This document shows, one piece after another, positions 9,858-64,000 of a DNA stretch of 64,000 bases. Where the stretch lies: the NCBI GenBank assembly GCA_016182235.1, contig JACOXT010000003.1, positions 130,209 to 194,208 of the forward strand, given 5' to 3'. The stretch's first letter is position 1. Each line of letters starts with the position of its first letter. Under the pieces are notes generated by a model. The model worked only from the letters and a program-made list of their open reading frames with translations. It was not told the DNA's origin and did no database searches. Both the position numbers and the translations under genes were made by a program. This stretch comes from Candidatus Levyibacteriota bacterium (GTDB lineage Bacteria; Patescibacteriota; Microgenomatia; Levybacterales; UBA12049).

Positions 9858-10019
9858 ACAGACCAAATTGTTAATGCTATCAATGATATCTCATGGAAAA
9901 AGGGACGAAAACCCCTACTCGTTTTAGGCGGTGTTGTTCCAACATTTGCTACATCTGATCTTTTACGTCGTTATCCGAAAACGATTTTAGCAACAGGTGA
10001 AGCTGAAGTCGCATCGCAA

Positions 10020-49567: not shown

Positions 49568-50014
49568 ATGAAACCGTTTAACATTTTTGTAATTTTAATA
49601 CTAGCAATAATTACAATAGGATTTATCTTCTTTAAAGATATGTTTAATTTGCCTCAAAATAAAACTGAGAGCGAGAGTTCTAATAACCCTATTCTAATGG
49701 ATCGGATTAACTATCTTGATTACACAAAAGAGAGCTTAAATTCTTCGAAAGGATCTGGAAGGTCAGTTTTGTTTTTTGCGGCAACTACCTGGTGTCAGAC
49801 TTGTAGTCAGTTAGATAAAGAAATTAAAGAGAATGCCCAACGTTTGCCATCAGATGTAACTATTTTGAAAGTAGATTATGATAATGATAGGGAGATGAAA
49901 AGAGCATGGGGAATAACTATCCAACATACTCTTATTGTTTTGGATAAAGACGGCAAAGAAATCAAAAGATGGGTGGGAGGGAATTTCGATTTACTGCTTA
50001 GGGAGCTTTCTTAA
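49568..50014 (+). CDS. Membrane-anchored thioredoxin-fold protein (CxxC)
   Basis: N-terminal TM; FFAATTWCQTCSQLDKEI. Confidence 0.75.
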   Translation: MKPFNIFVILILAIITIGFIFFKDMFNLPQNKTESESSNNPILMDRINYLDYTKESLNSSKGSGRSVLFFAATTWCQTCSQLDKEIKENAQRLPSDVTILKVDYDNDREMKRAWGITIQHTLIVLDKDGKEIKRWVGGNFDLLLRELS

Positions 50015-50029
50015 GAGGAAAGGCTAGAT

Positions 50030-51037
50030 ATGAAATTTATTATACTAATTATCGGAATCATAGTTTTAATAATTTGGGTATTGATAAACATGCCAAAAAT
50101 ATGGACTCAGATTGATCAATCAAGAGGAGGAACACCGGTGCAAAAAGCAAGCCCCGGTGAAATTGTTGTAAGAAAAGTGTCTTTGCAAAATGATTTTACT
50201 GGAGCTAAGGTAAAACAAGAAGATCTATTGCAGGGGTGTTTTGGACAGGACTGCATTCCTTCTATTGACAGTCCGAAATTTGAATCAGCGCAGGATGCTA
50301 GCTGGTTAAGAGGTGAAGACAGAGTATTTGCAATTGATTATAAGGAAACTCAAAGAGCCTATCCACAAAGAATTTTGAATTGGCATGAGATTGTAAATGA
50401 TACTATAACAGGCGATCCAATTGTCATAACTTTTTGCCCTCTTTGTGGATCAGCTTTGGCATTTGAGCGAAAAGTTGACGGAGTAATCACCGAGCTTGGA
50501 GTATCCGGCAAACTGCATAACTCTGATTTAGTTATGTACGATAGATATGAAGGCAATTTATGGCAGCAAGTTACAGGCGAGGGAATTGTTGGTCCGGCGG
50601 CAAGAAGAAATGAGATTCTAAAACAAGTGCCGATAATAACTGTTCCGTGGGGGCAATGGAAAAAGGAACATCCAGGAACACAAGTTCTTTCAAGGGATAC
50701 GGGCCATAGCAGGAATTACGACCAATACCCCTATGGAACTTACGAACAGGATGATGAAATTTACTTCGGAGTTAAAGATCTAAACAGACAACTTCAAATA
50801 AAAACAGTAGTCTATGGAGTAGAGATAAATGGATCATCTAAGGCTTACCCTGAAAGTGTTTTTGATAAGAGAAAAGTAGTTGAGGACACGGTTGGAAATA
50901 CAGCAATAAGATTGGAAAGAACTGACTCAGGACAAATTAAAGTCACTAACTTGCAAACCCAAGAGGAAATCATTCCAATTCGGCTATTCTGGTTTGCCTG
51001 GGCAGCATTCCATCCGGATACAGAGCTTTTTAAGTAA
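50030..51037 (+). CDS. DUF3179 domain protein (membrane-anchored)
   Basis: DCIPSIDSPKF, YPQRILNWHEIVND, ITFCPLCGS, GVSGKLHNSDLVMYDR..GNLWQQ. Confidence 0.8.
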   Translation: MKFIILIIGIIVLIIWVLINMPKIWTQIDQSRGGTPVQKASPGEIVVRKVSLQNDFTGAKVKQEDLLQGCFGQDCIPSIDSPKFESAQDASWLRGEDRVFAIDYKETQRAYPQRILNWHEIVNDTITGDPIVITFCPLCGSALAFERKVDGVITELGVSGKLHNSDLVMYDRYEGNLWQQVTGEGIVGPAARRNEILKQVPIITVPWGQWKKEHPGTQVLSRDTGHSRNYDQYPYGTYEQDDEIYFGVKDLNRQLQIKTVVYGVEINGSSKAYPESVFDKRKVVEDTVGNTAIRLERTDSGQIKVTNLQTQEEIIPIRLFWFAWAAFHPDTELFK

Positions 51038-51260
51038 TCCTTGATGACAATTGTAGAAAAAATCCGATAATAATTAGTATCATACCTAATAAGGTTAACC
51101 AAATTTCATTAGAGATTTCCGAGACCACAGACTTATCAATTTTGCGTTCTCTCCTAACTCCCAGATGAACTTTAAGAATGGAATATCCAATTAGGAGTTC
51201 GCCTAAAGTGGTGAGTATGAAACCAAATGCCGGCAGAGTCATATTTTTAGTGTAACACAT
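51030..51260 (-). CDS. Small two-TM membrane protein (hypothetical)
   Basis: Two hydrophobic helices. Convergent 8-nt overlap with the DUF3179 gene. Confidence 0.45.
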   Translation of the reverse strand: MCYTKNMTLPAFGFILTTLGELLIGYSILKVHLGVRRERKIDKSVVSEISNEIWLTLLGMILIIIGFFLQLSSRIT

Positions 51261-51270
51261 TTAGGAGCTC

Positions 51271-51318
51271 TTGACAGACAGATTTTAAAGATGTATTATT
51301 TGAATAATCGTTCAAATA
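51271..51318 (+). promoter_or_regulatory. Promoter TTGACA-17-TATTAT plus operator TATTTGAA-N6-TTCAAATA
   Basis: TTGACA at 51271-76 and TATTAT at 51294-99. A perfect 8-bp inverted repeat at 51297-51318 overlaps the -10. The same operator recurs at 53581-53602. Confidence 0.7.
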
Positions 51319-51320
51319 GT

Positions 51321-51632
51321 ATGGATAAACACTCTTGGATTAAAAAGAAATTAGGTAATAAAAAAGAACTGGTTGAGTGTGCCAAGCAGCTGGGAGTTGT
51401 TGGTGACACTACCAGACTCAAGATTTGTTATCTTCTCTGCAATTATCCAGAGATAAGTGTTGGCGATATGGCAGAAATATTAGATACCTCTGTTTCCGTT
51501 GTTTCCCATAGCGTTAAGAAACTTCTTAAACTTGATCTTGTAAAAAGAAGAAAGGAAGCTCAGACAGTATATTACTCGCTTGCAAAGAACGAGTTTACAA
51601 GGACTTTGAGAGATTTCATTACGAGTCTATGA
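51321..51632 (+). CDS. ArsR/SmtB-family metal-sensing regulator (copy 2)
   Basis: TTRLKICYLLCNYPEISVGDMAEILDTSVSVVSHSVKKL. Start moved to the ATG at 51321 because 51291 lies inside the promoter/operator. Confidence 0.8.
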   Translation: MDKHSWIKKKLGNKKELVECAKQLGVVGDTTRLKICYLLCNYPEISVGDMAEILDTSVSVVSHSVKKLLKLDLVKRRKEAQTVYYSLAKNEFTRTLRDFITSL

Positions 51633-51838
51633 AAAATAATGAATCAAAAATGAACAATTGGATTTTTCTTGCTGCTATTTTCTGCTGCGGATTGCCTTTA
51701 TTGCTTCTTTTGGGCGCAGGGTCAGCTTTTGCGCTAGGCATAAGTTTCTTAACAGACAATCTAATCTTTCTGATTTTAGGACTGGTTTTTGCTTTTGTAT
51801 TTATCTGGTTGTTTATAAAAAGGAGAGTTGGTGAGTAA
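51629..51838 (+). CDS. Small two-TM protein with a vicinal Cys pair in TM1 (MerT/MerF-like)
   Basis: AAIFCCGLPLLLLLGAG resembles the CC-x-x-P motif of the first TM helix of mercury transporters. Confidence 0.5.
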   Translation: MKNNESKMNNWIFLAAIFCCGLPLLLLLGAGSAFALGISFLTDNLIFLILGLVFAFVFIWLFIKRRVGE

Positions 51839-52397
51839 TTCTAGTATGGTAAAAATTACAAGTACTATAATTGTGATTGCGGTTGTGGTTCTCGGACTTC
51901 TTACAACAGACGTTATCAAATTTGGGGAGTCGAGTTCTGAGACTAAAGTCTCATCGCAAGTTCAGACTGCTGGTTTGTCCATCGGAGACAAGGCTCCGGA
52001 TTTTACACTTACTACTATTGATGGCGTAAATTTGACGCAAAGCAATCTTCAGGGAAAAATTCTGGTAATTACATCTGGTGCTGCCTGGTGCCCAACCTGC
52101 ATTATTGAAAATAAAAATTTCAATCCAGTTTTTAAGGAAGTCAAAGATAAAGGAGTTGAGTTTATAACAGTTGACATAGACCCGATAGATGACGAAGTGG
52201 CAATTGCTGAATTTCAAAGACTTTATGCGCCTTGGCATAATGTTTCGCAAGAAAACGCAAAGAAAATGATTGAAGATTATGGATTTTGGAGATTTGAAAT
52301 TACTTATATTGTAGATAGAGAAGGAATTATCCGCTTTAAAGATGGTGGTATTACCTCAACAGAAACTCTACGCAACGAGCTTGGTAAACTAATATGA
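51828..52397 (+). CDS. Membrane-anchored TlpA-like thiol:disulfide oxidoreductase (redoxin fold)
   Basis: GKILVITSGAAWCPTC. Confidence 0.8.
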   Translation: MVSNSSMVKITSTIIVIAVVVLGLLTTDVIKFGESSSETKVSSQVQTAGLSIGDKAPDFTLTTIDGVNLTQSNLQGKILVITSGAAWCPTCIIENKNFNPVFKEVKDKGVEFITVDIDPIDDEVAIAEFQRLYAPWHNVSQENAKKMIEDYGFWRFEITYIVDREGIIRFKDGGITSTETLRNELGKLI

Positions 52398-53056
52398 TTG
52401 ATTCGGGACTATTAATACTTGCTTCTACCTCCGGCATTTTTGCTTTTTTTACACCATGCAGCGTGGCCTTGATTCCCGGCTTTGTAGGTTTTCTCGTGAA
52501 GACTGACGACGAAGGCAAGATATTAAGAGGGGTGAAAGTCGGGTTAGTTTCTGCTTTGGGGCTTTTGACTGTTTTTATGGGGCTGGGACTCCTGATAAGT
52601 TTGTTTGGCAATTTTATAGCGCCTTTTACATTCTTTATTGGCGTTACTGCCGGAGTGATACTGATTATTTTGGGTCTGTATCTTCTGGCAGGGAAAACGA
52701 TAGGTGTGGCTATTCCTAATTCGATAGGGGAAAATCGCGGAGTTAAAGGATATTTTTTATTTGGAGCGACTTATGGACTTGCCTCTTTGAGCTGCACTTT
52801 GCCTATTTTTCTTCTGGTAATGTTTCAGGCTTTGTCTGTAGGCGGAGCAAAAGCGGGAATACTGATCTTTTTAATTTACAGCGCAACAGCAGCCTCTTTT
52901 ATGGCGCTGACTGCTTTTGCAGCTATTCTATCCAAGGATTTAGTGAGAAATTACCTTGGAAAAGCATTGCCTGTTGTAACAAGACTTAGCCCAATTCTAA
53001 TAATATTGGCAGGAATGTATCTGATATATTTTCAGTTAAGAGCTTTTTATTTATGA
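52394..53056 (+). CDS. ccdA: CcdA/DsbD-type transmembrane thiol-disulfide electron transporter
   Basis: FFTPCSVALIPGFVG and ASLSCTLPIFL, one conserved Cys in each half. Confidence 0.75.
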   Translation: MIDSGLLILASTSGIFAFFTPCSVALIPGFVGFLVKTDDEGKILRGVKVGLVSALGLLTVFMGLGLLISLFGNFIAPFTFFIGVTAGVILIILGLYLLAGKTIGVAIPNSIGENRGVKGYFLFGATYGLASLSCTLPIFLLVMFQALSVGGAKAGILIFLIYSATAASFMALTAFAAILSKDLVRNYLGKALPVVTRLSPILIILAGMYLIYFQLRAFYL

Positions 53057-53574
53057 GAGAGGTTTACTTGGCAATAATAAACGTTTTTAAGGAAAGAAAT
53101 TATTTTTTGGCTTTTGTACTTATAGCAATGGTCTTTTTTGCGCTGTTTATTTTTATTCCTGTTTTCACTATTCCAGGAAATGATCTTGGGTTTCAACTGT
53201 CCATTTACTCGCAAAAGGACTATGTTCTGATGTTTTTATTAGCCGCTCTGGTAGGACTTAATTTGGCCTTGCAAGTTTATATTTTTAGAAAACAAAGAGA
53301 GGAACGCAGGTTAACTCAGTCAACAGGTCAATTAGCAGTGTCGGGAATTTCTGGAGTATTTGGAGCAGTTGTTGGGACAGCGGCCTGTGCATCATGTCTT
53401 GCATTCTTTTTCGGACTTATTGGGTTGGGAGCAGGAAGCGTCATTTTTGTTTTGAATAATCAAATATATTTTTTTGTTGGCGCAATAATTTTGCTCTTAA
53501 TTTCTCTATATTTTACAGCTCGAAAAGTTAATGGTGTCTGTGAATCTTGCCATATTGACAAAGCGAAAACATAG
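53053..53574 (+). CDS. Integral membrane protein with an intramembrane CASC and a C-terminal CESC motif (unknown; candidate metal or thiol handling)
   Basis: VGTAACASCLAFFFGLIGLG; NGVCESCHIDKAKT. Confidence 0.5.
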   Translation: MREVYLAIINVFKERNYFLAFVLIAMVFFALFIFIPVFTIPGNDLGFQLSIYSQKDYVLMFLLAALVGLNLALQVYIFRKQREERRLTQSTGQLAVSGISGVFGAVVGTAACASCLAFFFGLIGLGAGSVIFVLNNQIYFFVGAIILLLISLYFTARKVNGVCESCHIDKAKT

Positions 53575-53602
53575 AGTTACTATTTGAATAGTTGTTCAAA
53601 TA
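53555..53602 (+). promoter_or_regulatory. Internal promoter TTGACA-17-TACTAT plus a second copy of the operator TATTTGAA-N6-TTCAAATA, upstream of the merA-like gene
   Basis: TTGACA at 53555-60, TACTAT at 53578-83, inverted repeat at 53581-53602. Confidence 0.65.
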
Positions 53603-53608
53603 AATATT

Positions 53609-55009
53609 ATGGATACTTATGATTTAATTATCATCGGCGGCGGAGCAGGAGCTTTTGCTGCGGCTATCAAAGCCAATGAACTTGGCGCAAAAACTTTGAT
53701 GGTTAATAAAGGATTACCTCTCGGTGGAACTTGCGTCAATGTGGGTTGTGTTCCTTCCAAGACTTTACTTTGGGCAGGGGAAGTAATGCACCTTGCCAAA
53801 AACCATAAAATTCCGGGAATTGATATGGAAGTAAAAAACTTCGATTTTGCAACTGTTCTTCAGCATGAACTCGATCTTGTTGCAAAATTAAGAGAAGAAA
53901 AATATGAGAAGGTGCTAAGGAATTTAGAAAACGTCACTCATTTAGAAGGACGCGCATCTTTTGTGTCTGCAAATGAAATTGAGGTTAATGGTCAGAAATA
54001 TCAAGGAAAGAAATTTATTATTGCCGCCGGATCAACAACTACAGTACCGCCGATTGAAGGTATTAAGGAGGTAGGCTTTATAACCCATATTGAAGCCTTA
54101 AAACTTAAAGAACAGCCAAAAGAACTGATTGTTATTGGTGCGGGTCCTGTAGGGCTTGAGTTTGCCCAAATGTATGCCCGGTTCGGCACGAAGGTAACAA
54201 TTCTTCATAGAGGCTCAACTATTTTTAGAGGTGAAGAAGAATTGACCACAAGATTGGCAGAGATACTGACTGATGAAGATATTACTATTAAAACAAATGT
54301 CCAAGTGAAAAGTGCGAGAAAAGAAGGCGACAAAAAGATTGTTTCCTATCTTGTTGAGGGCAAGCAGGAAGAAGTAGTGGCAGATGAAGTTTTACTCGCC
54401 GTTGGCAAAACACCAAATACGAAAGATCTAGGACTTGATAAAGCCGGCATTGAAATTGATGAAAAACAAGCAATCAAAGTAAGTCCCAATTTTCAAACTT
54501 CTCAACAGTATGTTTATGCGGTAGGCGATGTAATAAACTTACCCATAAGACAAGAACCGACAGCAGGTAGAGAAGGAACATTAGCTGCTGAAAATGCTCT
54601 GAAAAATACGCAAAATAGTATTGACTACAATACTGTTCCCTGGACTATTTTTACAGACCCGCAACTTGCAGGAGTTGGATTTACCGAGGAGGAACAGATG
54701 AAACGGTTTGGAACGTGTATGTGTAAGGCTGTCTCTTTCAAAGATATACCTAAAGCTATTATTTTAAATAGAACCGAAGGACTTATTAAGATGGCAATTC
54801 ACCCAGAAACAAAACAAATTATGGGGGTTCATATTCTGGCGCCTAATGCGGGAGAGTTAATCGCGCAAGCTATGATTCTTATTAAAAATAAAAATACTAT
54901 TGACGATGTTGTTAATTCCCTGCCGATGTTTCCGACACTTTCCGAGGCTATTAAAATTGCCGCCCTATCCTTTACCCAAGACATTACCAAACTTAGTTGT
55001 TGTGTTTAG
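53609..55009 (+). CDS. merA: Mercuric reductase-like FAD-dependent disulfide oxidoreductase (core MerA without the NmerA domain)
   Basis: Redox-active GGTCVNVGCVPSK and a C-terminal vicinal cysteine pair ...ITKLSCCV, as in MerA. Confidence 0.7.
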   Translation: MDTYDLIIIGGGAGAFAAAIKANELGAKTLMVNKGLPLGGTCVNVGCVPSKTLLWAGEVMHLAKNHKIPGIDMEVKNFDFATVLQHELDLVAKLREEKYEKVLRNLENVTHLEGRASFVSANEIEVNGQKYQGKKFIIAAGSTTTVPPIEGIKEVGFITHIEALKLKEQPKELIVIGAGPVGLEFAQMYARFGTKVTILHRGSTIFRGEEELTTRLAEILTDEDITIKTNVQVKSARKEGDKKIVSYLVEGKQEEVVADEVLLAVGKTPNTKDLGLDKAGIEIDEKQAIKVSPNFQTSQQYVYAVGDVINLPIRQEPTAGREGTLAAENALKNTQNSIDYNTVPWTIFTDPQLAGVGFTEEEQMKRFGTCMCKAVSFKDIPKAIILNRTEGLIKMAIHPETKQIMGVHILAPNAGELIAQAMILIKNKNTIDDVVNSLPMFPTLSEAIKIAALSFTQDITKLSCCV

Positions 55010-55011
55010 CT

Positions 55012-55677
55012 ATGAATAGTAAACTTTGGTATTTAAAACAATTAAATCTTTTTAAATCATTACCTCAAAAAGAGGTCGAGATGCTTTCGCACAATCTGGT
55101 GATGAAGGAATACGGCAAGAGGAAAGTTATTTTAGAGCCCGAAGATAGCGATAAAGTTTTTATATTAAAGATGGGGAGGGTAGAAATATATGAACTGACC
55201 CCTGATGGCAAAAAGATCATTGTGGATATCCTTACCCCAGGGAATGTTTTTGGGGACTTAGGTGTTGAAGAAACAAATGAGAATTTTGTAGAAGCCACAA
55301 CAAATTCACTTGTTTGTGTTATGAAAAAACAGGAATTCTTCGAGATGGTATCTAAAAACCTGGCTGTTTCTTATCAGCTGATTCGGGAGCTGTTCCAAAA
55401 AACTGTTGAAGATAAAAAAACTGTTGCAGCATTAGCTTCTGATAGTTTACTCACTAAGGTCAAAAACTTACTATTAAGATTGGCTAAAAGATATGGAGAG
55501 AAAAAAGAAAATACAGTAACCATAGCTGCTAAGTTTACTCATGAGGAGTTGGCAGACATGGTGGGAATTTCCCGTCCAACGATGACTGAACTGCTTAATA
55601 AACTAGATCGCATAGGGGTTATTAAAAGAGTAGGAAAAATTATTACATTTGATCCCCGGAAACTTGCTGAGATATAG
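55012..55677 (+). CDS. Crp/Fnr-family transcriptional regulator (no FNR Cys cluster)
   Basis: cNMP-binding-like beta-roll followed by a C-terminal HTH HEELADMVGISRPTMTELLNKL. ATG at 55012 preferred over the TTG at 54997. Confidence 0.85.
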   Translation: MNSKLWYLKQLNLFKSLPQKEVEMLSHNLVMKEYGKRKVILEPEDSDKVFILKMGRVEIYELTPDGKKIIVDILTPGNVFGDLGVEETNENFVEATTNSLVCVMKKQEFFEMVSKNLAVSYQLIRELFQKTVEDKKTVAALASDSLLTKVKNLLLRLAKRYGEKKENTVTIAAKFTHEELADMVGISRPTMTELLNKLDRIGVIKRVGKIITFDPRKLAEI

Positions 55678-55681
55678 CATT

Positions 55682-55702
55682 TTGTCGCCCGAATGACAGA
55701 AT
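55682..55702 (+). promoter_or_regulatory. CRP-geometry site 1: TTGTCGCCCGAATGACAGAAT
   Basis: Core TGTCG-N6-TGACA. TATAGT begins 30.5 bp from the site centre, the class II activator geometry. Confidence 0.65.
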
Positions 55703-55771
55703 TAAGCGTCACTTTCTTTATATAGTTTATTTAGGTTTTAAATCTGAAAACCTGGAAGGAGGTGAAAACTT

Positions 55772-56131
55772 ATGAAAAACATGACACCAATAATGATGGG
55801 AATGATGATGGCACTTATGCTCGCAGGTATTATTTTTGCCTGGCAGGGAGTAAGCATGCACAGACAAGTAAGTGTTGAAGAAGCGAAATTTCATGCGCTT
55901 CAATCCGAGTATTTCATTCAGAGCAAAGAAGTTAGAGATGAGGCAGTAACAGGGTCAGAACTCAATTCCCAACTGGTGCAAATACAAAATTACCCCTCTG
56001 AGCTTTTAAGACTCAAACTTGTAGGGGTAGGTAATATACTGACCGGAATATTTATCCTTCTTTTTGGAATTTTGGTTGCATTAATTATGATGCCAAAGAG
56101 ACTTGGGAAGATTATTTCGGAAAAAAGATAA
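55772..56131 (+). CDS. Hypothetical two-TM membrane protein
   Basis: Strong SD GGAAGGAGGTGA; TM helices at both ends. Confidence 0.6.
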   Translation: MKNMTPIMMGMMMALMLAGIIFAWQGVSMHRQVSVEEAKFHALQSEYFIQSKEVRDEAVTGSELNSQLVQIQNYPSELLRLKLVGVGNILTGIFILLFGILVALIMMPKRLGKIISEKR

Positions 56132-56137
56132 AAGAGC

Positions 56138-56151
56138 GTCGTCCGGACGAC
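56138..56151. terminator. Bidirectional terminator-like GC palindrome GTCGTCCGGACGAC between convergent genes
   Basis: Perfect 14-bp palindrome with A/T runs on the flank. Confidence 0.45.
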
Positions 56152-56181
56152 CGAACAAAAACAAATTTTTTTAAGATCAAC

Positions 56182-56910
56182 TCAAAGCTTAATCGTCCCC
56201 TCTTTTGTGAAAAGATGCGTTATGTTAATCCCTAATTTTTCATATACTTGTTTTGGAATAGACAAATCAGCAACATATAACTCTCCAACATAATCTTTTG
56301 CTTTGTCCACCAAAAGACCAACCTTAGGTAAAGCAAGAGTGATTGTTGTTGAGGCCCTTACGGTAGGATTATTAGCATCTCCTGAATTTCCGTTAAGACC
56401 TGAAGGAATATCAACAGCAAGAATTAGCTTACCTGAATTATTCGAAATATCAATTAGGTTAGAGTAGGGCACCCTAGGATTGCCTTTCAAATTATATCCA
56501 AGGAGGGCATCGATTATCAGATCCGAATCTTTTATTTTTTCCTGGATCAAGTTTATTTGTTCATTTGAGAATTCTATAATGTCTGCTCCTGTATTTATTA
56601 AGATATTAAACTGTACTTGAGCATTTTCAGCAAGATTTTCCTTCTTTTCTGCAAGTATACAAGTAATCTTCCCGCCAAAGTTAATCAAATGGCGTGCAGC
56701 GCCAAGCCCATCCCCGCCGTTATTTCCTCTGCCGCAAAGAATAACGATTTTTTTATTCTTTACACTTCCCGAAAGTATTTTCCGGGTAAGCCCTGCAATA
56801 TTTATTGATGCGTTTTCCATCATCATAAGGATTGAAGTACCAATCTCCTCAACCATAAGTCTATCTACCTCTGCCATCTGATCAACGGTTAGGGCCGGAA
56901 TTCTTCTCAC
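56182..56910 (-). CDS. nnrE: NAD(P)H-hydrate epimerase (YjeF N-terminal domain)
   Basis: ILCGRGNNGGDGLGAARHL. Confidence 0.85.
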   Translation of the reverse strand: MRRIPALTVDQMAEVDRLMVEEIGTSILMMMENASINIAGLTRKILSGSVKNKKIVILCGRGNNGGDGLGAARHLINFGGKITCILAEKKENLAENAQVQFNILINTGADIIEFSNEQINLIQEKIKDSDLIIDALLGYNLKGNPRVPYSNLIDISNNSGKLILAVDIPSGLNGNSGDANNPTVRASTTITLALPKVGLLVDKAKDYVGELYVADLSIPKQVYEKLGINITHLFTKEGTIKL

Positions 56911-56940
56911 GTCTTAATAATACATTATTCTCTAGTAAAT

Positions 56941-56961
56941 TTGTCGCCTGGATGACAGAAT
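56941..56961 (+). promoter_or_regulatory. CRP-geometry site 2: TTGTCGCCTGGATGACAGAAT
   Basis: 18 of 21 nt identical to site 1. TAGAAT at 56979-84 begins 29.5 bp from the centre. The predicted TSS is at or next to the ATG at 56992 (leaderless). Confidence 0.65.
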
Positions 56962-56991
56962 ATAAAAAATGCAAAGACTAGAATTAGTTTT

Positions 56992-57324
56992 ATGAAAGGA
57001 ATAGCTACGTGTCAAAATTGCATTATTGAGCTGTGGAAAAATGATTGCGAACATTGTGAGGCTGTTAAGCCCATTGTCGCGGAGCTTGAAAAAGAAGGAT
57101 ATGTTTTTGAAAAACACAATATTGAAGAAAAAGATGGAGAAACTCTGTGGCATGAGTATGCCGAGGAAATTGAGAAAAATAATAAAAGCATGGGATATGA
57201 TGAAGGGTATATTTATACACCAACATTTATTAATCCAGACAACAGAAACATTATTGCGTTTACCGATCGTGAGCCGACTAAAACTGAGTTAATCCGGTTT
57301 GCGGAAGGAGGCGAACCAAAATGA
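56992..57324 (+). CDS. Thioredoxin/glutaredoxin-fold protein with a CEHC motif
   Basis: IIELWKNDCEHCEAVKPIVAELEKEG. Confidence 0.65.
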   Translation: MKGIATCQNCIIELWKNDCEHCEAVKPIVAELEKEGYVFEKHNIEEKDGETLWHEYAEEIEKNNKSMGYDEGYIYTPTFINPDNRNIIAFTDREPTKTELIRFAEGGEPK

Positions 57325-57461
57325 TGGGGCATGGAAAACACGATAACTGCGCGATGTGCAGAATGGGAAAAGCTGTTGGGATGATAGAAAAGCATCCTGA
57401 GGGCTGTGAGTGCGAAACTCATCCAAAGAAGAAAGATGAAAGAGAAAACTATGGTAAATAA
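57321..57461 (+). CDS. Cys/His-rich micro-protein A (46 aa; absent from the ORF track)
   Basis: Hand translation MMGHGKHDNCAMCRMGKAVGMIEKHPEGCECETHPKKKDERENYGK. SD GGAGG lies 9 nt upstream. ATGA overlap with the upstream stop and 11-nt overlap with the gdh start. A paralog lies at 59433. Confidence 0.7.
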   Translation: MMGHGKHDNCAMCRMGKAVGMIEKHPEGCECETHPKKKDERENYGK

Positions 57462-58743
57462 TAATCCCTGGAAAAGAGCACAAAAACAATTACGGAAAGC
57501 GGCAAGGTATATCAAGCTTGATCCTCTAACGCTCGCAAAACTATCAAATCCTGATAGGGTGGTTGAGGTTTCTCTGCCTATAAAACTTGGCAGTGGCGAA
57601 ATAAAGGTTTTTCAAGGTTATAGAGTTCAACATAATAATATCAGAGGTCCCTATAAAGGTGGGCTAAGATATCATCAAAAGGTGGACATGGATGAAGTAA
57701 AAGCTTTGGCTTTTTGGATGACTATAAAAAATGCAGTGGTAAACGTGCCGTTTGGTGGTGGTAAAGGCGGTATTGCAGTTGATCCCAAGACTCTTGAGGA
57801 ATTGGAGCTTGAAAAACTCACCCGCCAGTTTACCAGAAAAATTGCAGACTTTATTGGCCCTCAAAAAGATGTCCCAGCGCCTGATGTAAATACTAATCCT
57901 AAAATCATGTCTTGGATTAAGAATGAATATAGCAATCTAACGGGTCAAGATTCGCCTGCGGTGGTAACTGGTAAGCCTATTGAGGATGGGGGTTCGCAAG
58001 GCAGAACTGAAGCTACAGGATTGGGTGGCGTTTACGCTTTGTTGACTGTTTTAAGCAAATTAGGTAAAGATCCCAAAGGGATGAGTGTGGCTATCCAGGG
58101 TTTTGGTAATGTGGGGAGTTTTTTGGCTAAATTTTTACAAAAAGAGGGATTTAAAGTTGTAGCGCTATCAGATTCTAAGGGTGGAATTTATATTCCGGAT
58201 GGCATAAGGGATATTGATGAAGTTAAGCGTTGTAAAGAAGAAAAAGGACTACTGGCTGGATGCTATTGCGTTGGTTCTGTCTGTGATCTAAAAAATATGA
58301 AAAACTTAGGAGGAAAAAATATTGAAGCCGATAAAGTTTTAACTCTTCCTGTTGATATCATTGTACCTGCTGCTTTAGAAAACTCAATTACCAAAGAGAA
58401 TGCTGAAAAGATAACAGCAAAGATAATACTAGAAATGGCTAATGGTCCGACAACATTAGAAGCGGATGAAATATTGCAAAAAAAGGACGTTGTGGTAATA
58501 CCGGATATTTTAGCAAACTCTGGAGGCGTGGCTGTTAGTTACTTTGAGTGGTATCAAAATTTAAACAGTAAGCACTGGGGTAAGGAAGAAGTGTTTAAGA
58601 AGCTAAGGGAAAAAATGGAAAAAGCTACAGGTAAAGTACTTGATACTTCTAATAAATATGGCGTTAGTTTAAGAGAAGCCGCATACATAGTCGCTTTAAA
58701 TAGGATTCAAGAAAAGAGCCAAAATATTTTGTCGTTGAAATAA
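57451..58743 (+). CDS. gdhA: Glutamate dehydrogenase (Glu/Leu/Phe/Val dehydrogenase family)
   Basis: VNVPFGGGKGGIAVDPK. Start moved to the ATG at 57451 (MVNNNPWKRAQKQL). Confidence 0.9.
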   Translation: MVNNNPWKRAQKQLRKAARYIKLDPLTLAKLSNPDRVVEVSLPIKLGSGEIKVFQGYRVQHNNIRGPYKGGLRYHQKVDMDEVKALAFWMTIKNAVVNVPFGGGKGGIAVDPKTLEELELEKLTRQFTRKIADFIGPQKDVPAPDVNTNPKIMSWIKNEYSNLTGQDSPAVVTGKPIEDGGSQGRTEATGLGGVYALLTVLSKLGKDPKGMSVAIQGFGNVGSFLAKFLQKEGFKVVALSDSKGGIYIPDGIRDIDEVKRCKEEKGLLAGCYCVGSVCDLKNMKNLGGKNIEADKVLTLPVDIIVPAALENSITKENAEKITAKIILEMANGPTTLEADEILQKKDVVVIPDILANSGGVAVSYFEWYQNLNSKHWGKEEVFKKLREKMEKATGKVLDTSNKYGVSLREAAYIVALNRIQEKSQNILSLK

Positions 58744-58749
58744 CAGAAT
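58729..58749 (+). promoter_or_regulatory. CRP-geometry site 3: TTGTCGTTGAAATAACAGAAT (overlaps the gdh stop codon)
   Basis: 16 of 21 nt identical to site 1. TATACT at 58767-72 begins 29.5 bp from the centre. Confidence 0.55.
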
Positions 58750-58796
58750 TAAATTAAAAGCTCGAATATACTGTGTTTATACAAAAATAAGATTTT

Positions 58797-59417
58797 ATGA
58801 AAGCAAATCAAAAATTTAGCAAATTAGCAAGCAATCAAATAATTGAAAAAACAGTTAATGCGCTTGAGAGAAACGGAATTAAAACGTTTGTTGCAGAAAA
58901 TGGCAGCGAGGCAAAAAGGAAAGTTGTAGAAATGTTGCCGGATGGGGCAGAGGTTTTAACCATGACGTCTCAGACCGCAGAAATAGTGAGTTTGGCAAAA
59001 GAAATAAACGAATCTGGAAAATATAATTCCGTGAGGCAAAAACTCATAGCAATGGATAAAAGTACGCAGGGTCGTGAGATGGCAAAAATGGGGGCGGCAC
59101 CCGAATTTGTAGTAGGGTCTTTGCATGCGGTCACAGAGGATGGGCAGCTTTTGATAGCTTCTGCAACAGGCAGTCAACTTCCGGCAGAGTCCTATGCCGC
59201 AGGAAAGGTTATTTTCGTGGTTGGAGCACAAAAGATAGTTAAGGATACTCAAGAGGGATTAAGAAGAATTTATGAGTACTCCTATCCTTTGGAAGACGAA
59301 AGAGCGCAAAAAGCATATGGCATGAGAAGCGGAGTTAATAAAATCCTTATAATCAACAAAGAAATGATGCCGGGCAGAATAACGATTGTTTTTATTAAAG
59401 AAAACTTAGGATTTTAA
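58797..59417 (+). CDS. LUD-domain (LutC/YkgG-like, DUF162) protein
   Basis: Size and the pattern ...LIASATGSQL...VIFVVGAQKIVKD. Confidence 0.6.
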   Translation: MKANQKFSKLASNQIIEKTVNALERNGIKTFVAENGSEAKRKVVEMLPDGAEVLTMTSQTAEIVSLAKEINESGKYNSVRQKLIAMDKSTQGREMAKMGAAPEFVVGSLHAVTEDGQLLIASATGSQLPAESYAAGKVIFVVGAQKIVKDTQEGLRRIYEYSYPLEDERAQKAYGMRSGVNKILIINKEMMPGRITIVFIKENLGF

Positions 59418-59432
59418 GGGAGGTGACATTAT

Positions 59433-59576
59433 ATGATGGGGCATGGAAAACACGATAACTGCGCGATTTGTCAAATGGGAAAAGCTGTTGGTATGATAGA
59501 AAAATGTACAGATAAAAATTGTACTAATCCAGTTCATAAAAAAGAGAAAGAGGAGGAAATTAAAAAAAGTGAGTAG
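59433..59576 (+). CDS. Cys/His-rich micro-protein B (47 aa; absent from the ORF track)
   Basis: Hand translation MMGHGKHDNCAICQMGKAVGMIEKCTDKNCTNPVHKKEKEEEIKKSE. SD GGGAGGTGA. 8-nt overlap with the GTG start of the downstream glutaredoxin-like gene. Confidence 0.7.
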   Translation: MMGHGKHDNCAICQMGKAVGMIEKCTDKNCTNPVHKKEKEEEIKKSE

Positions 59577-59868
59577 TAAAAACAAACTTATCTTTTATGG
59601 AGCTGACTGGTGTCCGGATTGTAGAAGATCTAAGCAATTTCTGGATGAAAAAGGAATTGAGTATGAATATATAAATATCGAGGAAGTGCCGGGAGCAGCT
59701 AAAGAGGTAGAAAGAATTAACAATGGTTACCAGTCAATTCCAACTATTGTTTTTCCTGACGGGAAAGTGCTTGTTGAACCATCCAATGCTGAGTTGGAAA
59801 AAGCACTGGAAGAAAATAAAAATCTGATTATTGTTCATAAAAGCGACATGGAAGGAGGTGGTAAATAA
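59569..59868 (+). CDS. Glutaredoxin/NrdH-like small redoxin (CPDC)
   Basis: LIFYGADWCPDCRRSKQFLDEKGIEYEYINI. Confidence 0.8.
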   Translation: MSSKNKLIFYGADWCPDCRRSKQFLDEKGIEYEYINIEEVPGAAKEVERINNGYQSIPTIVFPDGKVLVEPSNAELEKALEENKNLIIVHKSDMEGGGK

Positions 59869-60065
59869 TGGATGCTAATTTAAAATGCCCGACGTGCGGT
59901 GGTCAGTTTAACTCTCAACAGGAGTTGGATGAACATGCAAAAGGGACTCACAGTAACCAAGCAGGTGAGGAGCAACAGGAACATTCAATAAGTTGTTCAA
60001 AGTGTGGTTTAAAAGCAAACTCCAAAGTGGAGCTTGAAGAACATGAGCAACACCACAGTATGTAA
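59868..60065 (+). CDS. 65-aa protein with two classical C2H2 zinc-finger motifs
   Basis: CPTCGGQFNSQQELDEHAKGTH (C-x2-C-x3-F-x5-L-x2-H-x4-H) and CSKCGLKANSKVELEEHEQHH. Confidence 0.7.
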   Translation: MDANLKCPTCGGQFNSQQELDEHAKGTHSNQAGEEQQEHSISCSKCGLKANSKVELEEHEQHHSM

Positions 60066-60110
60066 TCCTTGGCGAAGATTACAATTTATTGATAAACTTA
60101 AGGAAGTACT

Positions 60111-61442
60111 ATGAAAAAATTTGATGTTTTGGTTGTCGGCAGTGGAGCTGGTCTTGAGGTGGCTTCATTTGCTGCAGAACGCGGTATGTCTGTTGCAGTA
60201 GTTGAGGAAGGTCCGCTGGGCGGAACATGTCTTAATCGCGGCTGTATTCCCTCTAAAATATTGATTCATTCGGCAGATGTTGCTGAGACTATTAAAAAAT
60301 TCGGGATTAAAAGCAAGATTGAAAATATTGATTTTGCAGCGATTGTAAAAAGAGTTTCTCAAGTTGTGGATGGTGACTCAAGTGGTATTGAAAAGGCAAT
60401 AAGACAAGGCAATAATCCAAACCTTTATAAAATGCGTGGTAAGTTTATCGGTCCAAAACTTATGCAAGTTGGCTCCGAACAAATAGAGGCAGACAAAGTG
60501 TTTATTGTGGGTGGAACAAGACCCTCTATTCCGCCAATTCCAGGCTTGAAAGATACACCATTTCTAGATAGTACAAAAGCATTAAGACTTGAAAAACAAC
60601 CGGAACATCTGGTAATTATAGGCGGTGGTTATATTGCGGCAGAGCTTGCTCATTTTTATGGATCACTCGGAACAAAGGTTACTATTCTAGTTCGGGGCAA
60701 TATCATGTTAAGTAACGAGGATGAAGAAATAGCACAATGGTTTACAAAAGAATTTATTAAGAAACATGAAATCCTCTTCAGCACGAAGGTAAGTAGTGTT
60801 TCTTATCATGATGAAATTTTTAATATTGGATTAAATGATGGGAAGAAATTGGAAGCGGACCAATTGCTGATTGTCACAGGAAGGATTCCTAATACCGATA
60901 TTTTGAATGTTAAAGCAACAGGGGTTGAAACGGACGAAAAAGGATATATAAAAGTAAACGAGTATTTGGAAACTAATGTAAACGGTGTCTTTGCATTCGG
61001 AGATATTATTGGGATTTTACCCTTTAGGCATACTGCCAATGATCAAGTTAGCTTTGCAATCAGAAACGCATTTACAGAAAAGAAGATTCCTGTCAACTAT
61101 TTTGCCATTGGTCATGCAGTATTTTCCTCTCCCCAAGTCGGTGGAGTTGGTAAAACCGAGGAGGAGTTAAAAAAGGAAGGAGTTTCATATAAAGTTGGCA
61201 GAGCAGAGTTAAAAGATACAGGTATGGGAGGAGCATTGCAAGAAAATGGTCTTGCTAAAGTTCTGGCAGATCAGGAGGGAAATATTTTAGGAGTTCATAT
61301 AGTTGGCCCACAAGCTTCAGTTTTAATTCATGAAGCAATAGTCGCCATGAAGGCAAATGGAACAGTCAGTGCTATTACCGATTCCGTTTATATTCACCCG
61401 GCTTTGCCTGAATGGCTGCAAAGAGCATTTTTTGCAATATGA
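60111..61442 (+). CDS. Class I FAD-dependent pyridine nucleotide-disulfide oxidoreductase (lipoamide/mycothione-reductase-like; not MerA)
   Basis: GGTCLNRGCIPSK; C-terminal HIHPALPE His-Glu dyad; no C-terminal Cys pair. Confidence 0.8.
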   Translation: MKKFDVLVVGSGAGLEVASFAAERGMSVAVVEEGPLGGTCLNRGCIPSKILIHSADVAETIKKFGIKSKIENIDFAAIVKRVSQVVDGDSSGIEKAIRQGNNPNLYKMRGKFIGPKLMQVGSEQIEADKVFIVGGTRPSIPPIPGLKDTPFLDSTKALRLEKQPEHLVIIGGGYIAAELAHFYGSLGTKVTILVRGNIMLSNEDEEIAQWFTKEFIKKHEILFSTKVSSVSYHDEIFNIGLNDGKKLEADQLLIVTGRIPNTDILNVKATGVETDEKGYIKVNEYLETNVNGVFAFGDIIGILPFRHTANDQVSFAIRNAFTEKKIPVNYFAIGHAVFSSPQVGGVGKTEEELKKEGVSYKVGRAELKDTGMGGALQENGLAKVLADQEGNILGVHIVGPQASVLIHEAIVAMKANGTVSAITDSVYIHPALPEWLQRAFFAI

Positions 61443-63049
61443 GTAGTAAAACCCAGCTTAATTGGTCAAGAAAAGTTGTTGTTTATCAAATTTATCCGCG
61501 AAGTTTTAAGGACAGCAATAATGATGGTATTGGTGATTTGCAAGGGATAATCGACAAGCTCGATTATCTGAATGACGGAACAGAAAAATCTCTTGGCATT
61601 GATGCAATTTGGCTTTCTCCCATCTATAAATCTCCTATGATTGATTTCGGTTACGACATTTCAGATTATCTGGATATAGATCCTGTTTTTGGCGATCTTG
61701 AAATATTCGATCGTTTCATAAAAGAGGCCCATAAACGCAATATAAAAGTTATTATGGATTTTGTTGCAAATCATACTTCAGATAAGCACATTTGGTTTAA
61801 AGAGTCTAGGTCTTCAAGGCATAATTCAAAAAGAGATTGGTATATTTGGAAAGACCCAAAACCTGATGGATCACCACCCAATAATTGGCTTAGTGTGTTT
61901 GGCGGTTCTTCTTGGGCTTTGGATAAAAGAACAAATCAGTATTATCTCCATAGTTTTTTACCTGAGCAGCCTGATTTAAATTGGCGAAATATTGAGGTAA
62001 AAACAGCAATGGAAAAGGTATTGGAATTTTGGATTCACAAAGGCGTTGACGGTTTTCGATCCGATGCTTCTTACCATTTGATAAAAGATGATCAATTTCG
62101 AGACGATCCTGGAAATCCAAACTACAAAGGCCCTAAAAATTCTTACAAAAGATTTCTCCATATCTATAGTCAGGGTCGGCCTGAAGCTTTAGATACTATA
62201 AACACTTTTTGTTCGATTCTGGGACTTCATAAAGATAAATATATTGTCAGTGAGGCCTATCTTGATATCCCCGAAATGACCAAACTTTACAAAGCTTGTT
62301 CCAATGGCCTCCATGCTCCGTTTAACTTTAATCTTATATCGCTTCCATGGGACGCACAAATAGTAAAAAGCCACATAGATAATTTTGAGGCATCCCTTAA
62401 TAAAAATGATTGGCCAAATTATGTATTAGGCAATCACGACAGACAGCGCGTGGTTTCACGTGTTGGCAAGAAAAGAGCAAAATTGTTAGCTATGCTACTT
62501 TTCACCTTGCGGGGCATGCCTTTTGTGTATTATGGCGAAGAGATTGGCATGGAGAATGTCGGCCTATCTTCCGATAAGCAAAAAGATTTAGTTGGGAATC
62601 GTCTAACAGCAAATCGAGATGGTGAAAGAACACCCATGCAATGGGACGAATCGGCGCATGCCGGTTTTTCTATTGTTAAACCATGGTTGCCAGTGGGAGA
62701 AAAATACAAAGATGTAAATGTCAAGAAAGAATTAAACGATCCCATATCTATGCTTCGTTTGTACCGTCATCTTATTCATTATCGTACTCATAATCATGTT
62801 CTTCTTCACGGATCCTATCGTTCATTAGGCTTTGGCAATAGAAATGTCTTTGCTTTTCTTCGCGAACTTGGTGATGAAAAAATTCTTGTTATATTAAATT
62901 TTTCAAAAGACGAAGAATCTGTTTCCCTTCCCTATCAAAAAGCAAAAGTTGTATGTACTACAAATAGAGAAAAAGAGGGAGAAACTATTAATATCAAAAA
63001 GATAATTTTGTTCGCATATCAAGGGTATGTGATGGAGGTGATTGAGTAA
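61439..63049 (+). CDS. GH13 alpha-glucosidase / oligo-1,6-glucosidase family enzyme
   Basis: YQIYPRSFKDSNNDGIGDLQGI, DFVANHTS, GVDGFRSDA, VSEAY, GNHD. ATGA overlap, so start moved to 61439. Confidence 0.88.
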   Translation: MSSKTQLNWSRKVVVYQIYPRSFKDSNNDGIGDLQGIIDKLDYLNDGTEKSLGIDAIWLSPIYKSPMIDFGYDISDYLDIDPVFGDLEIFDRFIKEAHKRNIKVIMDFVANHTSDKHIWFKESRSSRHNSKRDWYIWKDPKPDGSPPNNWLSVFGGSSWALDKRTNQYYLHSFLPEQPDLNWRNIEVKTAMEKVLEFWIHKGVDGFRSDASYHLIKDDQFRDDPGNPNYKGPKNSYKRFLHIYSQGRPEALDTINTFCSILGLHKDKYIVSEAYLDIPEMTKLYKACSNGLHAPFNFNLISLPWDAQIVKSHIDNFEASLNKNDWPNYVLGNHDRQRVVSRVGKKRAKLLAMLLFTLRGMPFVYYGEEIGMENVGLSSDKQKDLVGNRLTANRDGERTPMQWDESAHAGFSIVKPWLPVGEKYKDVNVKKELNDPISMLRLYRHLIHYRTHNHVLLHGSYRSLGFGNRNVFAFLRELGDEKILVILNFSKDEESVSLPYQKAKVVCTTNREKEGETINIKKIILFAYQGYVMEVIE

Positions 63050-63052
63050 ATT

Positions 63053-63583
63053 ATGAACAACGAAAAAAAACTTTTAAAATTTAGAAAAGAAAAAGACATC
63101 GCTTGGAAAAATGATAAAGAATCGCCTTTAACTGAGGAACAGAGAAGAATTTTTGAAGGATTAAATTATTTTCCATCTAATCGTAATTTGAGTTTTGAGC
63201 TGTTGCTTAATAAAAACGTTCCCGATGCAGGCAAAGAGGTAACTATTAAAACTACAGGCGGAGAGGAACAGGTTTATTTAAGAGCTGGGAAAGTTAGATT
63301 CAGAGTTGAGGGTATTGATGTTGAAGCAATTGTTTTTGAAGATCCTGAGCAGGAACAGTTTCAGTATTGTCTACTTTTTAGAGACCTAACAACTGGGAAA
63401 GAGACCTATAAAAATGGCAGGATGTTACAAATTCCAAAAAAAGGAGACAAGTTAGTTGTTGACTTTAATTATGCCTATAATCCCTATAGTTCCTACAATG
63501 ATAATTGGGATTGTCCAATTACACCAGAAAAAAATGTGTTGCCTGTTGCAATTAAAGCCGGAGAAAAGAAGTTTAATTCATGA
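63053..63583 (+). CDS. DUF1684 domain protein
   Basis: YAYNPYSSYNDNWDCPITPEKNVLPVAIKAGEKKF. Confidence 0.75.
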   Translation: MNNEKKLLKFRKEKDIAWKNDKESPLTEEQRRIFEGLNYFPSNRNLSFELLLNKNVPDAGKEVTIKTTGGEEQVYLRAGKVRFRVEGIDVEAIVFEDPEQEQFQYCLLFRDLTTGKETYKNGRMLQIPKKGDKLVVDFNYAYNPYSSYNDNWDCPITPEKNVLPVAIKAGEKKFNS

Positions 63584-63942
63584 AGTCGCTGCTTTTTGTT
63601 TATAATGCTGACTCGTCTTTATTTAATCAAATTGGTGATTTAATTCACAAAACTATTTCTCCTAAAACCTATCAATGTAATTTATGCGGGCTAACTTACT
63701 CGGGAATAAGTATGAAAAGCGGCTGGAAAGATTTTATCAACTCGTTACCCATTAAAGCAGTGTTTCTACACAAGGATGAATTTCTTAAGCAATATCCTAA
63801 TATGCAGAATACAAATTTTCCCATAGCTTTTACCAAACAAAATAATAATCTGGTAGAACTAATTTCAACACAGGAAATAAACCAGGCAAAAAGTTTGGAA
63901 GAATTGGAAAAACTGATTTTAGAAAAAACGCTACGATTTTAA
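63580..63942 (+). CDS. Hypothetical protein with a CxxC motif
   Basis: LLFVYNADSSLFNQIGDLIHKTISPKTYQCNLCGLTY. Family not recognised. Confidence 0.5.
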   Translation: MKSLLFVYNADSSLFNQIGDLIHKTISPKTYQCNLCGLTYSGISMKSGWKDFINSLPIKAVFLHKDEFLKQYPNMQNTNFPIAFTKQNNNLVELISTQEINQAKSLEELEKLILEKTLRF

Positions 63943-64000
63943 GCCACTAAATTTTTCGTGGGCTCAGTTATTTACGGATTCACTTTCAGTCGGGGCGCCC

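Follow-up and report, generated by a model that had tools for sequence, protein, structure and literature searches.

What does a Crp/Fnr-family regulator encoded in a Microgenomates genome control, and through which DNA? The question is raised by a 64,000-nucleotide stretch of a Candidatus Levyibacteriota bacterium (assembly GCA_016182235.1, contig JACOXT010000003.1, positions 130,209 to 194,208; hereafter the window, with positions counted from its first letter), where a 221-aa regulator gene of this family is followed by three copies of one 21-nt palindromic motif. Judging from the sequence, the regulator is likely to be a class II activator at three promoters of the window, and these promoters are likely to belong to a thiol-redox regulon that is conserved across Microgenomates. 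The evidence lies in the motif itself, its co-occurrence with the regulator in related genomes, and the rigid design of the promoters that carry it.

Operator-like sites and their co-occurrence with the regulator

The motif TTGTCG-N7-RACAGAAT was found at 55682-55702, 56941-56961, and 58729-58749, all on the forward strand with no mismatches, as an earlier note on this DNA had listed. A fourth copy was not found in the window, even with two mismatches allowed. Site 1 begins 5 nt past the stop codon of the regulator gene, and site 3 overlaps the stop codon of the glutamate dehydrogenase gene gdh (58741-58743). The 16-bp cores (55683-55698, 56942-56957, and 58730-58745) all read TGTCG-N6-TRACA, which fits the CRP/FNR-type geometry attributed to them. 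Site 2 shares 19 of 21 positions with site 1 on recount, rather than the 18 given in the earlier note, and the count of 16 for site 3 was reproduced.

Mononucleotide shuffles served as controls for the motif counts. The pattern TGTCR-N6-YRACAGA occurred three times in the window and 0.06 times in the shuffles. A weight matrix built with the three window sites included scored these sites at 27.6-34.3 bits, compared with about 15 bits for the best shuffle. Beyond the three sites, the matrix scan of the whole window returned only a degenerate copy at 56137, and the next best score of 12 bits fell in the shuffle range.

About 100 homologues of the regulator, with identities of 40-95%, were found in Levy-, Davies-, Curtiss-, and Gottesmanbacteria, Pacebacteria, WWE3, and unclassified Microgenomates. 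A scan of a genome collection provided 32 loci with regulator orthologues (L001-L032; 43-95% identity, 404 kb) and a control set of 17 loci with distant Crp genes (L033-L049; <30% identity, 288 kb). The pattern TGTCR-N6-YRACA followed by GA occurred 33 times in the orthologous loci, compared with 0.34 in shuffles, and was absent from the 288 kb around the distant Crp genes. Counting degenerate versions in L022 and L030, at least 24 of the 32 orthologous loci have a site no farther than about 25 bp from the stop codon of crp. Where the window has its degenerate copy, after the membrane protein gene, an intact site is found behind the orthologous gene in L009 and L027 and is predicted to drive the next gene. 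The degenerate copy itself occupies the gap where the membrane protein gene and YjeF_N converge.

Nine loci were returned when 241 million metagenome records were scanned on DNA alone, using a pattern composed of the site, a -10 hexamer, and ATGAARGG at a fixed offset. In eight of these, a regulator orthologue (40-64% identity) is encoded upstream, with its end 10-45 bp from the site; the remaining one matches by chance within a high-GC gene. The fixed ATGAARGG renders the pattern over-specific, and the scan is thus a test of co-occurrence that does not broaden the regulon. The earlier note had suggested a check for joint occurrence of motif and regulator in related genomes, and such co-occurrence was observed in both collections.

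The same counts bear on whether the palindrome might be the operator of another protein of the cluster, of the ArsR family or a small C2H2 zinc finger, with the Crp gene as a mere neighbour. Genes of both kinds are indeed frequent in the same clusters. However, the ArsR gene has a palindrome of its own, ATTTGAA-N6-TTCAAAT, at its own promoter and at that of the mercuric reductase gene merA, while a 5-N6-5 palindrome with a TGT..ACA frame has the geometry of Crp/Fnr sites. Moreover, a site next to the crp stop codon is a feature of at least 24 of the 32 genome loci and of all eight true metagenome loci, and several of the metagenome contigs show no ArsR or C2H2 gene. An operator for one of these other proteins is therefore very improbable, and the Crp/Fnr-family regulator is the protein predicted to bind the sites.

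Promoter geometry and the sign of regulation

The distance from the site centre to the first base of a predicted -10 hexamer was measured as 30.5, 29.5, and 29.5 bp for sites 1 to 3, in agreement with the range of 29.5-30.5 bp reported earlier. A consensus promoter scan (at least 4/6 matches per hexamer) identified no two-hexamer promoter at the three sites, where the -35 position is occupied by CAGAAT, a 2/6 match to TTGACA. Across sites, the -35 hexamer reads CAGAWT (2/6) and an extended -10 is missing. Among 36 strict sites (the three in the window and 33 in the 32 orthologous loci), TAnnnT starts exactly 21 nt past the core in 33, while window site 1 has it at 22 nt. The site centre in these 33 lies 29.5 bp before the first -10 base, corresponding to -41.5 for a predicted start 7 nt after the -10. 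The class II spacing claimed in the earlier note was thus retained across genomes, with the start sites being predicted ones. Additionally, an ATG is found at offset 33-37 in 32 of the 36 sites, no more than 4 nt from the predicted start; if the -10 spans -12 to -7, the first base of the ATG falls at +1 to +5. The mRNAs from these promoters are predicted to be leaderless or near-leaderless, which generalizes a claim originally made for the thioredoxin (Trx)-fold gene alone.

A profile of 46 unique sites shows 90-98% conservation for the palindrome arms, G-33, A-32, T-30, T-12, A-11, and T-7, with T-12, A-11, and T-7 at 92-94%, while the pairwise identity of the 17-nt spacer is 0.31 versus 0.27 expected from composition. 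Because the spacer is essentially random while the arms and the -10 are conserved, the geometry appears to be kept by selection and not by recent copying. The absence of a -35, as stated in the earlier note, holds at the level of the consensus only, since G-33, A-32, and T-30 are almost invariant; this asymmetry may be what is left of a -35, or the site may extend further on one side.

The spacer also speaks to the idea that the 21-mer binds no protein and is a remnant of promoter-cassette duplication or recombination, or a structural element. The promoters do resemble a repeated cassette (site, -10, ATG-AAR-GG), and the degenerate copy at 56138-56151 is at the same time a terminator-like hairpin. 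Conservation, however, is confined to the arms, the GA.T, and the -10 across orthologues of 40-95% identity, and the sequence between them is random, which argues for a selected footprint instead of a recent duplication. As for a structural element, a stable hairpin would need longer arms than the 5 bp seen here, and an RNA element was rejected as an explanation since an Rfam scan of positions 50000-64000 returned no RNA family match. A motif of this origin is hardly credible.

A good -10, the lack of a usable -35, and a site centre near -41.5 together suggest a class II activator. The same regulator could instead repress from the same sites, covering -52 to -31 and blocking sigma region 4 at a weak -35 (caGAwT), with derepression upon its release. 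The overlap of the site with the -35 position would allow this, as would the near invariance of G-33, A-32, and T-30, the first two of which match the TTGACA consensus; Crp/Fnr-family proteins can repress, and HcpR is predicted to do both (PMC545781). Repression is nevertheless improbable, as the -35 hexamer matches TTGACA at only two of six positions without an extended -10, and constitutive promoters in the same window have good -35 hexamers. Furthermore, 33 of the 36 sites keep the class II spacing without a single base pair of deviation despite a free spacer sequence, and such exactness is needed for face-of-helix contacts with RNA polymerase but not for steric occlusion. Activation is favoured on these grounds, including the good -35 hexamers of other promoters, leaderless ones among them.

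Canonical TTGACA-17-TAnnnT promoters occur elsewhere in the window at 51271 and 53555. A -10 hexamer 5-8 nt ahead of the ATG, together with a recognizable -35 (TTGACA, TTGTCA, or TTGATA), was also observed for the genes at 49130 (-), 49197 (+), 43871 (-), and 12464 (+). Since other promoters of the genome have good -35 hexamers, the missing -35 appears specific to the site-bearing promoters. Leaderless mRNAs, on the other hand, seem to be widespread in this genome rather than a hallmark of the regulon, and a Shine-Dalgarno-like sequence was found in only about half of a crude gene set.

Site 2 is, in addition, upstream of the divergent YjeF_N gene, at 31 bp from its GTG start (region 56908-56957), and a TATTAT precedes that start by 6 nt. 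Co-regulation of YjeF_N by site 2 was considered doubtful, as the distance from site to start is 31 bp in the window versus 41 bp in L004 and no conserved geometry was seen.

The regulator and its possible signal

A protein 100% identical to the regulator is annotated in a Candidatus Levybacteria metagenome-assembled genome. Residues 32-116 match the cNMP-binding-like beta-roll PF00027 (E 3.8e-15), and residues 150-221 match the winged helix-turn-helix PF13545, HTH_Crp_2 (E 2.9e-14). An AlphaFold2 monomer model (predicted local distance difference test score 76) confirmed the Crp fold, with beta strands in 30-105, a central dimerization-type helix at 117-142, with low confidence at 131-144, and helices at 177-184 and 188-200; the model does not inform on the effector. 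The top Foldseek matches to the model were GlxR, MtbCRP, CAP, NtcA, and CprK. None of the NCBIfam equivalog cut-offs was reached: the regulator scored 60.2 bits against a cut-off of 266 for the CRP equivalog and 45 bits against 228 for the Fnr model. No second Crp-family gene was detected by tblastn in the window, in line with the earlier note. The related locus L010 contains two paralogous copies (6186-6848 and 10001-10657), each about 68% identical to the window protein, and the second follows what looks like a fragmented merA.

The E. coli CRP shares with this protein the two-domain fold and dimerization helix, and its sites share the 16-bp 5-N6-5 core, the TGT..ACA frame, and A/T-rich flanks. 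As is predicted for the sites here, those of E. coli CRP at class II promoters, of which galP1 is an example, are centred at -41.5 in place of a -35. The recognition helix (S187-R188-P189-T190-M191-T192-E193; family form S-R-(P/Q)-T-M-T-E) includes an invariant R188 at the position of CRP R180, whereas P or Q stands in place of CRP E181, the residue that recognizes the fourth base of TGTGA. This replacement fits a half-site of TGTC rather than TGTG, and the half-site here is indeed TGTCR with a C as the fourth base, in contrast to the TGTGA of CRP. Another difference is that many of the targets here are predicted to be leaderless.

The sensor domain departs further from CRP. In an alignment to MtbCRP and homologues, the position of the cAMP phosphate-binding Arg (R82/S83 in CRP) is occupied by H, N, or Q and is followed by an invariant Phe92, suggesting that the domain cannot bind cAMP in the manner of CRP. 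The closest solved structures are those of Mycobacterium tuberculosis CRP (Rv3676) and Corynebacterium GlxR (profile E 2e-27, Foldseek E 1.6e-19), but identities are only 23-25%, and their cAMP-binding Arg and Thr (R89/T90 in MtbCRP) are absent here.

A resemblance in the half-site was found in CooA, the CO-sensing activator of Rhodospirillum rubrum and Desulfovibrio, whose sites carry the outer pentamers TGTCG-N6-CGACA (consensus TGTCGGCnnGCCGACA; PMC545781). The outer pentamers are the same as those described here, CooA is bound just upstream of the -35 region, and the solved structure of CooA-1 belongs to a clear sequence relative of the regulator (E 7e-23). In contrast, the inner bases of the sites are YCY/RRR here and GGC/GCC in CooA, and the regulon is unrelated to CO. 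The haem ligands of R. rubrum CooA are His77 and the N-terminal Pro, whereas the sensor domain here has neither a conserved His nor an N-terminal Pro for haem.

Attention is drawn instead to a single cysteine. C102 is conserved in 100 of 101 homologues and is the only cysteine in 86 of 101, and it aligns with Cys122 of E. coli FNR. FNR, as known from E. coli and Aliivibrio fischeri, has the same fold, activates from -41.5 at class II promoters, and employs Cys122 as the fourth ligand of its [4Fe-4S] cluster. The N-terminal Cys-X2-Cys-X5-Cys of FNR, however, is absent from the regulator and its homologues, which begin with MN(R/K)KLWYLK, and an FNR-type [4Fe-4S] cluster therefore cannot form; the FNR site TTGAT-N4-ATCAA differs as well. 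The earlier remark that the FNR cysteine cluster is lacking thus applies to the N-terminal cysteines, while the equivalent of Cys122 was kept. C102 may be a plausible thiol-based sensor. In the Crp/Fnr protein FLP of Lactobacillus casei, which employs two cysteines per subunit as opposed to one here, redox switching works through cysteine thiols, the equivalent of Cys122 among them. Thermus thermophilus SdrP, a Crp-family activator of oxidative-stress genes, needs no effector and is regulated via its own expression. The two proteins are precedents for two possible modes of input, through the cysteine and through the amount of regulator.

Predicted target genes, probable upstream control, and the proposed circuit

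The gene content claimed downstream of the sites was corroborated by Pfam and NCBIfam, and the coordinates of all features are collected in Table 1.

Table 1. Features of the window, by position. Sites, hexamers, promoters, and operators are sequence-based assignments; E-values refer to Pfam unless stated.
Feature	Position	Strand	Description
Promoter, probable operator, and ArsR-family regulator gene	51271..51632	+	TTGACA-17-TATTAT (51271-51299); same palindrome as at merA (51298-51317)
Promoter and probable ArsR operator of merA-crp	53555..53601	+	TTGACA-17-TACTAT (53555-53583); palindrome ATTTGAATAGTTGTTCAAAT (53582-53601) over predicted start
Mercuric reductase MerA, core form	53609..55009	+	Ends ..SCCV; NCBIfam TIGR02053 514.4 bits, cut-off 454.45
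Crp/Fnr-family regulator gene	55012..55677	+	221 aa; cNMP_binding 3.8e-15, HTH_Crp_2 2.9e-14
Site 1	55682..55702	+	TTGTCGCCCGAATGACAGAAT; core TGTCGCCCGAATGACA; 32.8 bits
Predicted -10 hexamer TATAGT	55721..55726	+	Serves membrane protein gene; starts 30.5 bp from site 1 centre, offset 22 after core
Membrane protein gene	55772..56131	+	119 aa, no family assignment; leader and strong Shine-Dalgarno GGAAGGAGGTG; predicted site 1 target
Degenerate site copy	56138..56151	.	GTCGTCCGGACGAC; 17.7 bits; without outer T/A; terminator-like hairpin (terminator scan)
Site 2	56941..56961	+	TTGTCGCCTGGATGACAGAAT; core TGTCGCCTGGATGACA; 34.3 bits
Predicted -10 hexamer TAGAAT	56979..56984	+	Starts 29.5 bp from site 2 centre; ends 7 nt ahead of ATG 56992
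Trx/glutaredoxin-like gene	56992..57324	+	110 aa, MKGIATCQNC..CEHC; weak Glrx-like 3.7e-4; predicted leaderless, heads site 2 operon
Micro-ORF A	57321..57461	+	46 aa, Cys/His/Met-rich (MMGHGKHDNCAMCRMGKAVGMIEKH...); conserved in most orthologous loci (tblastn)
Glutamate dehydrogenase gene, gdh	57451..58743	+	ELFV_dehydrog 1.2e-76 and ELFV_dehydrog_N; last gene of site 2 operon
Site 3	58729..58749	+	TTGTCGTTGAAATAACAGAAT; core TGTCGTTGAAATAACA; 27.6 bits
Predicted -10 hexamer TATACT	58767..58772	+	Starts 29.5 bp from site 3 centre
LUD-domain protein gene	58797..59417	+	LUD_dom 8.4e-17; heads site 3 operon
Micro-ORF B	59433..59576	+	47 aa, paralogue of micro-ORF A; L027 orthologue directly downstream of a site
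Glutaredoxin gene	59569..59868	+	Glutaredoxin 3.7e-13
Small C2H2 zinc-finger protein gene	59868..60065	+	zf-C2H2_4 1.1e-6
Pyridine-nucleotide disulfide oxidoreductase gene	60111..61442	+	Lipoamide dehydrogenase / mycothione reductase-like; Pyr_redox_2, Pyr_redox_dim
GH13 alpha-amylase-family gene	61412..63049	+	Alpha-amylase 2.2e-137

Orthologues of the window genes recur in the related loci, many of them behind a site. Those of the membrane protein (76-80% identity) occur in L002, L009, and L027, and a more distant homologue lies downstream of a site in L004. The Trx-like gene directly follows a site in L001-L004, L007, and L010, the gdh orthologue has a site directly ahead of it in L009, the LUD orthologues are preceded by a site in L004 and L027, and those of the C2H2 gene in L007, L009, and L017. 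An orthologue of the 120-aa open reading frame (ORF) at 63580 also directly follows a site in related genomes. Across genomes, the first gene after a site is most often the Trx-like gene. Other small M(K/R)GIxxCxxC proteins, thioredoxin/glutaredoxin-like and TlpA-like proteins, the Cys-rich micro-ORF, C2H2, LUD, GDH, and the 119-aa membrane protein are also found directly after sites, while glutaredoxin, disulfide reductase, and DUF1684 come later in site-headed operons. The predicted targets are thiol-redox genes in all genomes examined, which makes the earlier label of a redox regulon a fair description.

The products of micro-ORFs A and B share the pattern MMGHGKHDNC.MC.MGKAVGMIEK.. / HG.HDNC.MC.M.KA.GM.EK, which is conserved across Microgenomates. 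Both are rich in Cys, His, and Met, neither belongs to an assigned family, and they could be metal- or thiol-binding peptides. Micro-ORF A is annotated as hypothetical in the source metagenome-assembled genome; it had no Pfam or NCBIfam family match, and a homologue search returned eight matches, all unnamed. In L011 and L014, the micro-ORF appears to be fused to an upstream extension. The disulfide reductase remained below all NCBIfam equivalog cut-offs, and its orthologues in the same clusters are 74-84% identical. The GH13 ORF overlaps its 3' end by 31 nt on the same strand (61412-61442), and GH13 is assigned to the site 3 operon by inference only. In most other loci, DUF1684, which the window also encodes along with a YjeF_N gene on the opposite strand (Pfam/NCBIfam), directly follows the reductase, and GH13 is also nearby in L013; in the window, GH13 seems to have been inserted into the operon.

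Several small proteins at the heads of predicted leaderless transcripts, apparently unrelated to one another, have an M(K/R)GIxxCxxC module at the N-terminus in common, encoded with synonymous codon differences (window 56992-57021; L001-L032). The Trx-like orthologues of L021 and L025 are without this module and start with MKKLIELWK, and a separate ORF of 51-60 aa with MKGIxVCCDG follows crp there. Always first on the predicted leaderless transcript right after crp, the M(K/R)GIxxCxxC proteins could, on the speculative single-cysteine reading described below, be redox partners or feedback modulators of the regulator and not mere targets.

Upstream of the regulator, its ATG lies 2 nt after the merA stop codon, and in the orthologous loci crp starts 0-9 nt after merA or DUF3179. 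The MerA protein has the redox-active CxxxxC (GGTCVNVGCVPSK) and a C-terminal Cys pair. MerA in these phyla was already catalogued (PMC8261052). The genes preceding merA encode ArsR, TlpA-like, and DsbD/CcdA-like proteins and a membrane protein, and the first three form a mer-like operon with merA. In related loci without the arsR..merA block, DUF3179 abuts crp, and the block thus looks like an insertion between DUF3179 and crp. Among the forms of DUF3179, the constant neighbour, are selenoproteins in which the motif is UxxC/T (PMC9312934). The perfect palindrome ATTTGAA-N6-TTCAAAT has exactly two copies in the window, at the arsR and merA promoters, both overlapping the predicted starts, and was also found upstream of the arsR orthologues in L009, L010, L013, and L017. 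It is a probable ArsR-family operator, suggesting that an ArsR-family repressor controls merA-crp in a two-tier cascade. Autoregulation was not indicated: the weight matrix detected no site upstream of crp or at the merA and arsR promoters in the window, and none upstream of crp in L027 and L031 at 16 bits or more.

According to the proposed mechanism, the regulator would bind as a dimer to a palindrome of about 22 bp, aWT-TGTCR-N6-YRACA-GAWT, sitting where sigma region 4 would otherwise need a -35, and would recruit RNA polymerase directly. The promoter at site 1 would drive the membrane protein gene. The one at site 2 would drive the Trx-like, micro-ORF A, and gdh operon as a leaderless mRNA starting at the ATG, and the one at site 3 would drive LUD, micro-ORF B, glutaredoxin, C2H2, disulfide reductase, and probably GH13. 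The regulon would then constitute a stress module for thiols and disulfides, and probably also for thiophilic metals. Two layers of input are envisaged. The first would be the amount of regulator, with crp being last in an upstream operon whose promoter carries an ArsR-type operator; release of ArsR, plausibly by Hg(II) or another thiophilic metal, would yield more regulator. The second would be the sensor domain with its one cysteine at the position of FNR Cys122. A stronger version, in which a single-cysteine type of Crp/Fnr sensor reads thiol status directly (oxidation, S-thiolation, or Hg(II) or another thiophilic metal) as the second tier of a cascade from ArsR through merA-crp to thiol repair in the Candidate Phyla Radiation (CPR), is speculative and rather doubtful.

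Several considerations weigh against the mechanism as a whole. A site covering -49 to -31 could equally block RNA polymerase, and the near-invariant G-33/A-32/T-30 could be a weak -35, in which case the promoters would not be strictly activator-dependent. The scan for sites covered 64 kb of this genome, so that both the term local and the extent of the regulon are provisional. Many sites may stem from duplicated promoter cassettes and would not be fully independent, though their spacers have fully diverged. The case for thiol sensing by C102 is drawn from conservation and alignment, and that for the ArsR cascade from a 2-nt gap and an operator-like palindrome, with an internal crp promoter being possible.

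Taken on its sequence features, the regulator represents a new, CPR-specific subfamily of Crp/Fnr proteins with a CooA-like half-site, possibly a thiol-based signal, a thiol-redox regulon, and predicted leaderless promoters of the class II type. Literature searches for a Crp regulon or leaderless promoters in Patescibacteria or Microgenomates returned nothing relevant. To our knowledge, transcriptional regulation in CPR bacteria is almost unstudied because they are uncultured. Class II activation by a Crp-family protein is a textbook mechanism, and the advance is one of scope and not of principle. What the locus offers is a sharply defined pair of regulator and predicted operator, promoters built to one rigid plan (site at -41.5, then the -10, then a predicted leaderless ATG), and predicted targets, thiol-redox and metal-related genes, that are conserved. 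Its parts are short enough to be synthesized, and they would provide an experimental entry point to gene regulation in CPR bacteria, as well as to the oxidative, disulfide, or mercury stress response of small-genome anaerobes.

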